Shown here piece after piece: positions 9,396-13,728 of a DNA stretch of 49,765 nt. The stretch's first letter is position 1. Each line of letters begins with the position of its first letter. The stretch is from Escherichia phage_vB_EcoD_Punny, in the sequence record OL539444.1; one strand, 5' to 3'. Below the pieces are notes generated by a model that saw only the letters and a list, made by a program, of their open reading frames with translations, was not told where the DNA came from and ran no database searches. Made by a program: the position numbers and the translations under genes.

Positions 9396-9409
9396 TAAAG
9401 GGGGCTATT

Positions 9410-10072
9410 ATGCACTTACCTAACGGAGCACAGATTTTTATTGAGAATACTCGCGCACAGGCAGTAAGCGCAACCAACGTTAGCAACGCTGAAAAACCGG
9501 AGTTCACTGTTGCAAGTGGCGGAACTGACTTTAAAAAGGGTGATTACATTATCGTTACCGCCTCAAGTTGGGGTAAATTGCTTGATCGCGTTCTGCGTGT
9601 GACGGCGGCTGAAGAAACTAAGGTTACTGTTGAAGGTATCGACACAACCGATACTAACGTTTTCCCGGCTGGCGCTGTAACTGCGAGCTTTGCGAAAATC
9701 AACGGTTGGACAGAGATCCCATGCGTACAGGACTTGGGGCAGGACGGAGGCGAGCAACAGTATTACAATTACCAGTGCTTGAGCGATGACCAGGAGCAGC
9801 AGTTACCAACCTATAAGAGCGCGGTATCACTGACTTACACATTTGCGCATGAATACGATAACCCGATTTATCCGCTATTGCGTAAGGCTGACGAATCCGG
9901 CGACGTTAAAGCATTGCGCATGTATGTACCAAAAGCGAAAGAAATGCGCCTTTGGGCTGGTGTGCTTTCTTTCAACGAGATCCCACAAACGGCGGTAAAC
10001 GAAATGGAAACCGTTTCTTTGTCGGTATCCCTGAAAGGTCGCTTTACTTTCCTCCCTGCTAACCAGGATTAA
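9410..10072 (+). CDS. major tail protein
   Basis: 220 aa ORF immediately upstream of the G/GT chaperone pair and tape measure gene (conserved order), followed by a terminator. Confidence 0.6.
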   Translation: MHLPNGAQIFIENTRAQAVSATNVSNAEKPEFTVASGGTDFKKGDYIIVTASSWGKLLDRVLRVTAAEETKVTVEGIDTTDTNVFPAGAVTASFAKINGWTEIPCVQDLGQDGGEQQYYNYQCLSDDQEQQLPTYKSAVSLTYTFAHEYDNPIYPLLRKADESGDVKALRMYVPKAKEMRLWAGVLSFNEIPQTAVNEMETVSLSVSLKGRFTFLPANQD

Positions 10073-10078
10073 TATTAA

Positions 10079-10102
10079 GGGGCGCATTGCGTCCCTTTTT
10101 TA
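10079..10102 (+). terminator. rho-independent terminator
   Basis: Stem GGGGCGC/GCGTCCC (one G-U pair), loop ATT, then TTTTTT. Confidence 0.55.
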
Positions 10103-10143
10103 TTTGATGTAATATCACCTCAATATTTAACCACTCAGGAGAA

Positions 10144-10464
10144 ATGACAATGGCTAAAATGAAATTGACTCTTGCCCCGCTTCCAGATTTCAAACTTCCA
10201 GTTAAATTTGTATTGCCGGATGGTAACGAGCAAAAAATTGTGTTTACCGTTAAGCATAAAAAGGCCAGCGAGATTCAAGAGCTTTACCAGAAAGAAGGTA
10301 TTAAAGATCCTGAATTCATCATGAATGTTGCCGTGGGTTGGGATCTGGAGGAAGAATTCAACGAAGAAAACGCGCAACTGTTAGTTGATTATTATCCTGG
10401 CGCGGCGCTGGCTCTTATGGGATCTTATTTAAGTGCGCTGGCAGGGCAACGCGTAAAAAACTAA
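10144..10464 (+). CDS. tail assembly chaperone (G-like)
   Basis: 106 aa ORF upstream of the tape measure gene; ends just after slippery heptamer A_AAA_AAC (10455-10461). Confidence 0.7.
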   Translation: MTMAKMKLTLAPLPDFKLPVKFVLPDGNEQKIVFTVKHKKASEIQELYQKEGIKDPEFIMNVAVGWDLEEEFNEENAQLLVDYYPGAALALMGSYLSALAGQRVKN

Positions 10465-10781
10465 AACGGGCGGTTTATCTGTATTATCAGAAACCGCCGA
10501 CAGATGCAGAATTGCAAGCCGTAGGATTAACCCGCGCAGACTATGAAGGAGAAGATCCGCCAGAGGTCATATTTGATGAAAGTATGATGCAATCATGGGA
10601 TATATTTTGCGCGATGGGTACACAGTGGCGTAGTGCTGGCGCTGGTGCTTACGGTTTTGATTATAATGTTTTGCCTATGTTATTCAGAATCTATAAAATA
10701 GACGATGAAGAAATGGCCTTAAATGACTTGCGCATCATGGAACAAAAAGCACTGGAAATGATGCAAGCAAATAACAAATAA
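10144..10781 (+). CDS. tail assembly chaperone GT-like fusion via -1 programmed frameshift
   Basis: The -1 frame from heptamer 10455-10461 is open into ORF 10512-10781; hairpin GGCGGTTT...AAACCGCC begins 6 nt downstream of the heptamer. Confidence 0.6.
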
Positions 10782-10804
10782 AGCGCCTACGGGCGCTTTT
10801 TTTA
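10782..10804 (+). terminator. rho-independent terminator / attenuator before tape measure gene
   Basis: Stem AGCGCC/GGCGCT, loop TACG, then TTTTTTT. Confidence 0.65.
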
Positions 10805-10818
10805 TGAGGGTAAAATAT

Positions 10819-13728
10819 ATGGCTGAACAATTTGCAGGTTTAACACTTGGCGTGAACGTCGAGCAGTTAAACAAAGCTGTTAAGTCGTTACAGGACTTTA
10901 AAAAAGCCAACGACGAAGCAAAGAAAGGCGTTGAGAGCTTTGTTAACGAGGAAGAAGTTGCAAAGCAAAAGGCTAAACAGTTAGCCGATGAATTAGCGAA
11001 ACAGAGCCGTGAATTTAAGAGAATTCAGGATACAGTTGATCCGACAGCGGCAAAAATGCGCAAGCTGTCACAGGCAGCAAGTGATCTTGATAAGCTATGG
11101 CAAAAAGGGATTGTACCTGATGAAACATTCTTCCAATTAGGGAGCATGTTGGAAACTCAGATCAGTAAATTGGAGCGCAACAAAAAGGCGCTTACGGAAG
11201 AAGGCCGCGCAGCGTTGGAAGAATCACGCGCCAAAGAGAAAGCAGCGGCAGCAGGAAAGAGCTTCCTTGCGGATCTAGAATCACAAGCGGCGGCTCTTGG
11301 AAAAACCAAATCTGAATTACTGGAAATGAAAGCCGCGCAACTTGGCGTAAGTGCTCAGGCCGCGCCATTCATTGCACAGCTTAAAGCGCAAGAGCGCCAG
11401 ATGAAATTAACCGGAATTAGCGCAGGGCAATATAACCAGGCAATGCGAATGCTTCCGGCTCAGATCACTGACGTTGTAACGTCGCTGGCTTCCGGTATGC
11501 CTGTTTGGTTGGTTGCAATCCAGCAGGGTGGACAGATTAAAGATTCTTTCGGCGGTGTTGGTAATACGTTTAAAGTGCTGTTGTCGTTTCTGAATCCGGT
11601 AAACGTTGGCCTTGCCGCATTAGCCGTTTCAATGGGTGCTCTTGTTAAGGCTGGTTATGATGCGTATAAGTCGCAACGTGACTTGCAAGAGGCGTTAGTG
11701 CTGACTGGTGGATATGCTGGCACAAACGGCGCACAGTTTGACAAGATGGCGCAGGATATTAATAACAGCACTGATGCGACCATTGGCAGCATTCGCGGCA
11801 TTGCAACAGAGCTTGCAAAATCTGGAAAATACACCATTGATCAGATTAAAGCCATTACGAAAACTACCGCTCAGTGGTCAACGGTAACGGGTGAATCAAG
11901 CGATAAGATTACTGGTTACTTTGATAAGATTGCTGGCGATCCGGTTAAAGGTCTTGCAGAGCTAAACGAGCAATTCAACTTTTTAAGCGAAGGGCAGTTA
12001 ACTTATATTGCAGACCTTGAGAAAACGAAAGGAAAAACGGAAGCAGTGACGGCGGCGACAAAGTTATTTGCTGATGTTATGGATCAGAGATTAGCTAAAC
12101 TGGCAGACTCCGCAACTCCATTAGAAAAGATGTGGACGAACATTAAAAAATGGGCGTCAGATGCTTGGGGATGGGTTGGAGATCATACGCTGGCGGCTCT
12201 TAACCTGATTATCGACGTTGTAGCCGGAACGGTTGAGCAGGTTAGATACTTGCTTAATCAGGGTGATATTCTCATTGGTGAATTTATTGTGTCGGCAACT
12301 AAGACGATGCAAAAAATCCCAGGTCTTGATAATGTTGGCGATTCTGTAATTTCGCAACAACAGAAGATCATTAATAACGCCAAAGAGAACAACAAGGAGT
12401 TATTAAAATCAATTGCCGAACGTAACGAGCGAGTCAAAAAAGGCGAGCAGGGTTACATTGACATGATGAAAAATCGTGCGGCGGTTGAACAGCAATATGC
12501 TACTAAAACAAAGGAGAATATCAGGAAGGAAGCCGAGGAATTAGCCAAACGCGATAAAAAGCAAAAGGCTGAAAAAGTTAAGGTATCGGCTGGCGATAAG
12601 CTGGAAGAACAATATCAGCGTGATATCCTGGCGTTAGAAACTCAATTAAGAGTTTTGAAAGAGCATAAGACGATCACTGATACCATAAGCCAGCAACGTA
12701 AATCTTTATGGGCTGAACAGGCTAAAATTCAGATTCTGCAAGAAGCCTCAACAAAGCGGCAACTTACTGATGAAGAAAAAAGCATTTTAGCCAACAAAGA
12801 TAAGATCCTAGCGATGGCTGAACAAAAAGCTATTTTAGGAGATCAGATTGTTGCACAAACGCGCCTTAATCAGTTGCAAGATAGCTCAATCAAGTTTATC
12901 CAGCAGCAGAAAGCAGCAACAGAAGCACTAGCCAAAACCAGAGGGTTAAGTGAACGTGAAGCAGCAAGAGCGGCGGAACGTGCAAAGGTTGAGGCTGATT
13001 ATCTTGCCAAAGGAGGCAAGGAAGGAGATCCGCAACTCACCGCAATGATGGATGCATTAGACAATCGCTATAAAGAGGAAGATGCTAAACGTGCTGATTG
13101 GTTGGCTGGCGCTAAAAATGCCTTTGCGGAGTACGGCGAGGAAGCAATGAACATGTATGATAATATCGGCAACATTGCTAGCCAGGCGCTAAACGGCCTA
13201 TCGCAACAAATGGCTGATTTTTTGACTACTGGACAAGCAAACTTCAAAGACTTTGCAAAATCGATCATTAGCCTTATTGTTCAGATGATCACAAAGATGG
13301 TTATCTTCAATAGCATTTCCGGCATGATGGGCGGCTCAACCTGGACGCTTGGAAGCCTTTTAAGCGGTGCTGGTTTTGCTGGCGGCGGTTATACTGGCGA
13401 CGGTGGCAAATATGATCCGGCTGGCGTTGTTCATAAGGGTGAGTTTGTTTTCACCAAAGAGGCAACGCAAAGAATCGGAGCTAAAAACCTGTATCGCATG
13501 ATGCGAGGTTATGCAAACGGCGGTCAAGTAGGAAGCGTGACAACTGGCGGCGCTGGCATCAATCGCGGTGCATCGCAATTTGCATTTGGTGATATCAACG
13601 TTAACATTGACAACGGTCAAGATCCAAAAGGGATGGAAACTGGTATCAAGATGATTTTCACTGAAATGATTCAACGGTCATGCTCGCAAGGTGGCGAGGT
13701 TTATAATTTTGTTCATGGGAGGGCTTAA
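10819..13728 (+). CDS. tail tape measure protein
   Basis: About 970 aa, long coiled-coil N-terminal region, Gly-rich hydrophobic segments near the C-terminus; follows G/GT. ATG 10819 preferred. Confidence 0.85.
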   Translation: MAEQFAGLTLGVNVEQLNKAVKSLQDFKKANDEAKKGVESFVNEEEVAKQKAKQLADELAKQSREFKRIQDTVDPTAAKMRKLSQAASDLDKLWQKGIVPDETFFQLGSMLETQISKLERNKKALTEEGRAALEESRAKEKAAAAGKSFLADLESQAAALGKTKSELLEMKAAQLGVSAQAAPFIAQLKAQERQMKLTGISAGQYNQAMRMLPAQITDVVTSLASGMPVWLVAIQQGGQIKDSFGGVGNTFKVLLSFLNPVNVGLAALAVSMGALVKAGYDAYKSQRDLQEALVLTGGYAGTNGAQFDKMAQDINNSTDATIGSIRGIATELAKSGKYTIDQIKAITKTTAQWSTVTGESSDKITGYFDKIAGDPVKGLAELNEQFNFLSEGQLTYIADLEKTKGKTEAVTAATKLFADVMDQRLAKLADSATPLEKMWTNIKKWASDAWGWVGDHTLAALNLIIDVVAGTVEQVRYLLNQGDILIGEFIVSATKTMQKIPGLDNVGDSVISQQQKIINNAKENNKELLKSIAERNERVKKGEQGYIDMMKNRAAVEQQYATKTKENIRKEAEELAKRDKKQKAEKVKVSAGDKLEEQYQRDILALETQLRVLKEHKTITDTISQQRKSLWAEQAKIQILQEASTKRQLTDEEKSILANKDKILAMAEQKAILGDQIVAQTRLNQLQDSSIKFIQQQKAATEALAKTRGLSEREAARAAERAKVEADYLAKGGKEGDPQLTAMMDALDNRYKEEDAKRADWLAGAKNAFAEYGEEAMNMYDNIGNIASQALNGLSQQMADFLTTGQANFKDFAKSIISLIVQMITKMVIFNSISGMMGGSTWTLGSLLSGAGFAGGGYTGDGGKYDPAGVVHKGEFVFTKEATQRIGAKNLYRMMRGYANGGQVGSVTTGGAGINRGASQFAFGDINVNIDNGQDPKGMETGIKMIFTEMIQRSCSQGGEVYNFVHGRA

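Follow-up and report, generated by a model that had tools for sequence, protein, structure and literature searches.

The A_AAA_AAC heptamer at the end of the tail-assembly chaperone ORF of Escherichia phage vB_EcoD_Punny is very probably a -1 programmed ribosomal frameshift site, from which the G/GT chaperone pair of this T1-like siphophage would be produced. The stretch of DNA analysed here (OL539444.1, 49,765 nucleotides; hereafter the window) is from a phage of the Tlsvirus type (T1-like, Drexlerviridae), and the frameshift feature as such is already known, since it is in the public record for near-identical phages. A frameshift of the G/GT type had been proposed in a preliminary description of the window; gene context, conservation and a switch of the constrained reading frame support this reading, and only details concerning the stop codon and the spacer were wrong. 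The features of the locus are listed in Table 1.

Table 1. Features of the tail-assembly chaperone locus; positions are counted from the first nucleotide of the window.
Feature	Position	Strand	Basis or remark
Tail tube gene	9410-10072	–	PF08813
Terminator-like hairpin with T-run, interval between tail tube gene and chaperone gene	10077..10097	+	annotated as terminator in Stevie
Shine-Dalgarno AGGAG of chaperone gene	10137..10141	+	read from sequence
G-like tail assembly (tape measure) chaperone ORF, 104 aa	10150..10464	+	Pfam, phrog_17368, phrog_569
Predicted GT fusion CDS, 210 aa	10150..10781	+	reads 10150..10461, then 10461..10781 for tandem slippage
Slippery heptamer A_AAA_AAC	10455..10461	+	0-frame register, codons GTA AAA AAC
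T-like -1 frame extension (DUF1799)	10461..10781	+	PF08809, E = 1.2e-12; frame analysis
0-frame stop TAA	10462..10464	+	adjoins heptamer; first 3 nt of the 7-nt spacer
Stem-loop, 7 nt 3' of heptamer	10469..10498	+	fold; likely frameshift stimulator
Possible second helix of a pseudoknot (speculative)	10477..10505	+	AUCUGU (10477-10482) with ACAGAU (10500-10505), seen by eye
Terminator-like hairpin with T-run, just 3' of GT stop and 5' of tape measure gene	10780..10799	+	annotated as terminator in Stevie
Tape measure gene	from 10804/10819	–	PF06791, PF09718

Between positions 9400 and 10900 the window is 100% identical to Citrobacter phage vB_CfrD_ZerotoHero, and the same 1.5 kb shows identities of 96.7-99.9% to Stevie, U136B, LL5, TLS and other Tlsvirus phages. 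The order of genes, from 5' to 3', is tail tube, Phage_TAC_4 ORF, DUF1799 ORF and tape measure; two overlapping ORFs between the genes for tail tube and tape measure are a mark of the G/GT class. The chaperone ORF matched PF08748 (Phage_TAC_4) over its full length (Pfam, E = 2.3e-37). In the list of ORFs its longest version starts at 10144 and encodes 106 amino acids. The AGGAG sequence is located 8 nt upstream of the ATG at 10150 and only 2 nt upstream of the ATG at 10144, and this spacing favours 10150 as the true start. An equivalent start is annotated in Stevie and ZerotoHero, while TLS uses 10144. Terminator-like hairpins were more frequent than expected around the locus (4 between 9900 and 10900, versus 1.0 expected); two of them bracket the G/GT cistron, and the sequence at 10780-10799 is so symmetric that its hairpin scored on either strand. 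A search for Rfam families yielded no match in 10000-10900 apart from sub-threshold terminator-like ones.

The heptamer had been placed at 10455-10461, and this was borne out: it is in the X_XXY_YYZ register of the chaperone ORF, is the sole in-frame motif of this kind in that ORF, and lies inside the 76-nt overlap with the -1 frame. The stop codon of the G-like ORF, which was thought to follow four codons later, in fact directly adjoins the heptamer. The statement that the -1 frame is open through 10781 holds as well, the frame being open from 10389 to 10778 and ending with TAA at 10779-10781. No ATG, GTG or TTG is found in the -1 frame from 10389 up to the TTG at 10512, and inspection of the sequence showed no Shine-Dalgarno sequence before that TTG. 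Thus, the -1 ORF overlaps the end of the chaperone ORF and has no credible start of its own, as is typical of the G/GT class. In the long ORFs of the window, in-frame heptamers occurred at a frequency of 0.33% per codon, which corresponds to about 0.08 expected in the 25-codon overlap, and A_AAA_AAC itself was present in frame three times. As an observation from a single sequence, the motif alone is only suggestive; it is considered to be more than chance because it is conserved in relatives. Upstream of the heptamer, AGGG (10443-46) was considered as a Shine-Dalgarno-like stimulator of the dnaX type and rejected, since it is not conserved and T1 contains GCCGGA there; the aligned related loci showed no conserved upstream element of this kind.

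Relatives were collected without conditioning on the motif, in three sets: 39 IMG/VR loci, eight annotated phage regions which spanned the tblastn range down to 26% identity, and 15 further loci seeded from single proteins of a Ralstonia lineage and of the metagenomic locus L042. The heptamer A_AAA_AAC was invariant in 41 of 42 related loci, the exception being a locus with a truncated G ORF, and it was also found in T1, ACG-M12, Pocis76 and slur05. In all Drexlerviridae outside Webervirus, the chaperone ORF ends in A_AAA_AAC, with its final two sense codons, and an immediately following TAA; the same ending is present in the Dhillonvirus slur05 and in L042. In every carrier of A_AAA_AAC, a DUF1799 ORF of about 105 codons is located in the -1 frame. 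The Ralstonia, Vibrio Baybae and L063-65 lineages contain G_GGA_AAC instead, followed directly by TGA or TAG. Thus N_NNA_AAC with an abutting stop recurs down to protein identities of about 26-30%, and the stop is found at exactly this position, as TAA, TGA or TAG, in all lineages sampled. The conservation of the heptamer, on which the proposal had been made to depend, was therefore confirmed for the relatives examined except Webervirus; relatives share both the slip site and the arrangement in two frames, Webervirus keeping only the latter.

Lineages vary in the codon that precedes the heptamer (GTA, GCA, GAA, CGG, ACG or CTG, for V, A, E, R, T or L), and its third base is always the same as X, i.e., A with AAA and G with GGA. 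This identity is not predicted by coding alone and is required by re-pairing in a slippery P site; the exchange of A_AAA_AAC for G_GGA_AAC preserves the logic of ribosomal slippage. Not all of the conservation can be ascribed to slippage, since the C in position Z and the position of the stop are partly forced by dual coding: G must end in Asn, T needs a conserved Leu (CTA or CTG), and the next codon starts with A or G.

Some individual loci deserve mention. The truncated chaperone ORF in Salmonella phage 36 (L024, NC_029071, around 1501-1817; a 41-kb record) has a length of 177 nt despite a DNA identity of about 99%, and an indel or assembly error is probably the reason. Escherichia phage Zar3M (L047, NC_073065) has A_AAA_AAT TAA, with which Asn in G and Leu (TTA) in T are kept; its RefSeq record contains many N bases within tail genes. 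Webervirus has no heptamer, and the homologous site reads GCA AAA GTT TAA, e.g., in Klebsiella phage PhiKpNIH-2 (L045:1010-1060) and, at the same positions, in MezzoGao (L066). About 414 Klebsiella records of this group were matched by tblastn, and the TAC_4 ORF and the -1 DUF1799 frame are retained. The records of PhiKpNIH-2 and MezzoGao contain no annotation of a frameshift, and the downstream region of Webervirus folded no better than shuffled sequences (z = 0.2). Slippage of a single tRNA-Lys on the A_AAA tetramer of Webervirus would yield ..RAK/SLRRAVYL.. (the slash marks the junction, here and below).

The constraint on coding changes its frame at the heptamer. Site entropies were calculated by codon phase for 39 distinct sequences of 250 nt; upstream of the heptamer, the means for the three phases were 1.44, 0.63 and 0.49 and peaked at the wobble base of frame 0, and from +10 to +59 they were 0.38, 0.31 and 0.98 and peaked at the wobble base of frame -1. 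At the heptamer, frame -1 therefore takes over from frame 0 as the frame under purifying selection. The region 10465-10511 evolves with the codon periodicity of the -1 frame and encodes a conserved KRAVYL..Y..PP motif. Since this constraint begins at the heptamer, in a region devoid of start codons, it is not explained by independent initiation.

Downstream of the stop codon a GC-rich hairpin had been described, made up of GGCGGTTT and AAACCGCC. The pairing as such was found again, while the start at 10468 was not: the 5' arm, GGCGGTT(T), occupies 10469-10476 and the 3' arm, (A)AACCGCC, 10491-10498, and an inner UCUG/CAGA helix is optional. Since the stem starts at 10469, the spacer between heptamer and stem comprises 7 nt, and not 6 nt as had been given. 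A fold of 76 nt had a minimum free energy of -18.9 kcal/mol (z = -2.2; 6 of 200 shuffles were as good), and when the -1 frame peptide was recoded synonymously, just 0.4% of the variants folded as well. In a set of 36 distinct sequences the wobble sites of the stem core were frozen, the Ala codon being GCG in 35 and the in-stem Pro codon ending in G in 34; at the next Pro codon, outside of the stem, the wobble base was G in 19, A in 7, C in 9 and T in 1. The frozen four-fold degenerate sites are those within the five G-C pairs of the stem. A valley of variation in the DNA, i.e., a region of high conservation, covered about -5 to +45, counted from the heptamer; in this analysis the heptamer and stop positions themselves were fixed by the way in which the sequences had been chosen.

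Divergent lineages have stems of differing sequence at the same spacing of 7 nt: GGCGGUU/AACCGCC in the window and T1, GGCGGCG/CGCCGCC in slur05, GGUCGG(G)/(C)CCGACC in Baybae and GCUCGG/CCGAGC in L063/64. The stem of most lineages folds better than 99% of synonymous recodings. Thus, the stem is a stable structure at proper spacing and under selection, as is found in canonical -1 frameshift cassettes. The covariation score was 0.104, compared to 0.098 for shuffles, 109 of 500 of which scored as high (ungapped alignment; GC core invariant). This test was not significant because the GC core never varies, and therefore the suppression of synonymous changes and the null model of synonymous recoding were relied on instead. 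No stem was found at the 7-nt position in L021-23, ACG-M12/L025 and L042. The loci L021-L023, L025, L044 and L042/L062 keep A_AAA_AAC TAA yet have no stem at this spacing; in L021, CGC GCC replaces CGG GCG, and in L021 and L062 the best local structure is situated about 30 nt further downstream. In the window, pairing of 10477-82 with 10500-05 might convert the stem-loop into an H-type pseudoknot, which is speculative; across the 36 sequences, 68% of the cells in this candidate helix were paired, and about one third of the Drexlerviridae sequences contained a central mismatch.

With respect to existing annotations, CDSs joined from two pieces, whose span is consistent with a -1 shift, are present in TLS (tfmS), Stevie (CPT_Stevie16) and Hafnia phage Pocis76, and GenBank annotators had likewise inferred a frameshift in TLS, Stevie, LL5, Sazh, U136B and Pocis76. 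By exact-sequence look-up, the 210-aa fusion with the junction ..VK/KLKR.. was traced to the accessions AIX12284.1 (Stevie) and AWY04347.1 (LL5). Fused proteins of 210-212 aa from Sazh, U136B and TLS belong to the same 90% cluster, a sister cluster is headed by Pocis76, and phrog_17368 is the fused family. The join in the GenBank relatives is equivalent to 10150..10458,10458..10781. The K/K junction is also present in AAR09274.1 and QVW27739.1, while tandem slippage after decoding of Asn predicts ..VKN/LK..; the look-up found only K/K versions, and none with the N-L junction (..VKN/LKR..). The genome papers of Stevie and U136B mention the frameshift, the latter as manual annotation "via a slipper sequence". 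A sequence search of the PDB with the fusion protein gave no matches, and a search of the literature on TfmS/TfmA and DUF1799 yielded nothing useful.

Several peculiarities of database records were noted. In ZerotoHero (MW021748.1, gp16) and T1 (MK213796) the T part, which corresponds to 10512-10781 of the window, is a separate small ORF. RefSeq names G, T and GT alike as "tail length tape measure protein". The chaperone of TLS (L002, AY308796) reads ..KIVLPFKHKK.. at residues 33-37 approximately, versus ..KIVFTVKHKK.. in the window and Stevie; judging from the sequences, this block of three residues gives the impression of two indels that compensate each other in the sequence from 2003. Records of "Campylobacter phage" A15b, A120, A118 and A110b and of "Streptococcus phage MBBL140" (MG065637.1, MG065671.1, MG065675.1, MG065688.1 and OR786094.1) match the chaperone locus of Drexlerviridae, with identities of 87-100% for A15b, A118, A120 and MBBL140 and of 58% at the protein level for A110b. 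From these matches the host labels look wrong, or else the records look like contaminants.

Taken together, the locus contains every feature of the G/GT class that can be read from a sequence, and the following course of events is proposed. Most ribosomes would translate the Phage_TAC_4 ORF (10150-10461) and end at the abutting TAA, thereby producing an abundant short chaperone. A minority would move back by one nucleotide on A_AAA_AAC; according to the canonical model, the tRNA-Lys that reads AAA (P site) and the tRNA-Asn that reads AAC (A site) would re-pair to AAA AAA, and CTA (10461-10463), AAA, CGG and so forth would then be read in the -1 frame up to 10781. The expected product is a fusion of 210 aa with the junction ..QRVKN/LKRAVY.., whose C-terminal DUF1799 part matches lambda gpT by position. 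With the heptamer in the P and A sites, the GC-rich stem would be located at the mRNA entrance, where it probably hinders translocation. The adjoining stop marks where G ends and may in addition influence the rate of slippage. A literature search for experimental demonstration, or for proteomic or genetic data, in T1-like phages yielded none.

In E. coli reporters, A_AAA_AAC gave frameshifting of 0.16% alone, 0.19% with the stimulators of IS911 and 0.74% with the pseudoknot of IS3; the respective values for G_GGA_AAC were 0.16, 0.22 and 0.89%, and heptamer versions ending in AAG reached 39-43% (Sharma et al. 2014, Table S3). Frameshifting at the site in the window may therefore be very low. 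Since the heptamer is weak in these reporters (<1%), the conserved stop and the stem may help to set the ratio of the two proteins. The use of a weak heptamer throughout the family would fit a small need for GT, if the ratio of G to GT in lambda, which is about 30:1, is taken as a guide.

The frameshift could also proceed mainly by a post-translocation route, which involves the E and P sites ("shifty stop"). In this case the P site would contain tRNA-Asn while UAA waits in the A site, the tRNAs could slip back owing to slow termination, CUA would be read, and the level of release factor would tune the ratio of G to GT. The conservation of the abutting stop in every lineage, despite its changing identity (TAA, TGA or TAG), and the intrinsic weakness of the heptamer in E. 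coli are in favour of this route, as are the natural cases of abutting stops in RSV and BYDV and the finding that, with the HIV heptamer in E. coli, an intercodon stop can be reached by RF2 before slippage (PMC4373837). In the same bacterial system, however, the stop lowered frameshifting and did not raise it (PMC4373837); the position of the stop is also explained by dual coding and a conserved C-terminus of G, and the 7-nt spacer suits the classical P/A-site geometry. Both routes would lead to the same ..KN/L.. product, so that they are not separable by sequence analysis; we consider the post-translocation route as the main one to be rather unlikely, and slippage in the P and A sites is preferred.

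That the DUF1799 ORF is a separate gene, which starts at TTG 10512 and needs no frameshift, would be in accordance with the annotation of two CDSs in ZerotoHero (gp16), T1 (MK213796), ACG-M12 and many others, and DUF1799-only proteins of 48-99 aa are common in databases. Yet there is no Shine-Dalgarno sequence at 10512, and the annotated starts vary from record to record, hence the range of product sizes from 48 to 99 aa. Moreover, the 50 nt between heptamer and 10512 show the periodicity of the -1 frame, encode KRAVYL..Y..PP and offer no start codon, and the conservation of the X positions of the heptamer would be left unexplained. A separate gene is thus very improbable. Slightly less credible still is transcriptional slippage, by which RNA polymerase would add one A in the run of six A (10455-10460) and ..VKKLKR.. 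would result; this is the K-K junction which the deposited fusions carry. The runs known to permit appreciable slippage by the polymerase comprise about 8-9 residues or more, however (for a review see PMC5009743), and six A fall short of this; the G_GGA_AAC of distant relatives has only three A at the same position, an exchange that suits slippage of ribosomes and not of the polymerase, and a stem at a spacing appropriate for ribosomes would not be accounted for. A coincidence of dual coding, with the -1 ORF as a non-functional remnant, can practically be dismissed even though about 0.08 in-frame heptamers are expected in an overlap of this size, since the DUF1799 frame is under purifying selection in >1000 phage records from several families and the site is conserved with compensating changes of X.

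The ribosomal -1 frameshift which we favour has a well-known counterpart in phage lambda, where G and GT are reportedly produced in this manner (Levin, Hendrix & Casjens 1993; Xu, Hendrix & Duda 2004, 2013, 2014), and a class of such G/GT-type frameshifts is said to exist among long-tailed phages (Xu et al. 2004). In both cases the genes are situated between those for the major tail protein and the tape measure, a short chaperone and a -1 extended fusion are encoded, the slippery heptamer is near the 3' end of G, and the ratio of products is expected to matter; by analogy with lambda, both proteins would function as chaperones of tail assembly. In contrast to the locus described here, with TAC_4 and DUF1799, lambda G and T have Pfam families of their own; the heptamer is G_GGA_AAG in lambda and A_AAA_AAC in the window, where the stop adjoins it and a conserved stem follows downstream. 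To our knowledge, the lambda G/GT frameshift needs no downstream stem.

Closest to the window are TLS tfmA/tfmS, Stevie gp15/gp16, LL5, Sazh and U136B, which contain the same locus at 96.7-100% DNA identity, with identical heptamer, stop and stem; the fusion protein of Stevie and LL5 is identical (AIX12284.1). There is no substantive difference between these Tlsvirus relatives and the window, and ZerotoHero, although 100% identical, lacks an annotated join. The same heptamer occurs in IS1 insA-insB' (A6C motif), where a -1 frameshift of low efficiency on A_AAA_AAC has been proven in enterobacteria (PMC4066793); IS1 differs in that no stimulator is established and that a transposase is regulated, not virion assembly. 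RSV and BYDV share the stop directly 3' of the slippery heptamer, as an "intercodon" (PMC4373837), but depend on eukaryotic ribosomes, other heptamers and stimulators that are long-range elements or pseudoknots. E. coli dnaX is a bacterial -1 frameshift with an A-rich heptamer and a downstream stem-loop; in contrast to the site in the window, it has the highly efficient A_AAA_AAG, an upstream Shine-Dalgarno-like stimulator and a shortened product.

We tentatively suggest that the recoding signal of Phage_TAC_4/DUF1799 loci is a conserved cassette of three parts, i.e., a weak N_NNA_AAC, a stop that adjoins it and, exactly 7 nt downstream, a stem that may form an H-type pseudoknot; there is some chance that this is correct. 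If so, and if the kinetics of termination by RF1 and RF2 help to set the ratio of G to GT, the logic of the signal would be similar to that of RSV and unlike the stimulator-free G_GGA_AAG of lambda. Webervirus, with GCA AAA GTT TAA, would then use a different slip, by a single tRNA-Lys on A_AAA.

For the window, the main value of the finding is one of annotation: one chaperone gene with a -1 frameshifted extension should be described, in place of the separate small T ORF, with its arbitrary starts, that is found in the records of ZerotoHero and many relatives. In lambda the ratio of G to GT is critical for tail assembly. Two points remain of interest beyond annotation: a weak heptamer, a directly following stop and a stem 7 nt away are combined throughout the family, and the Webervirus clade has lost the heptamer. 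If the three elements act together, this phage family, which is large and amenable to experiment (T1, TLS and U136B on E. coli K-12), would provide a convenient bacterial model, which could show how a stop adjacent to the slip site tunes -1 frameshifting; this would be a modest refinement rather than a new principle.
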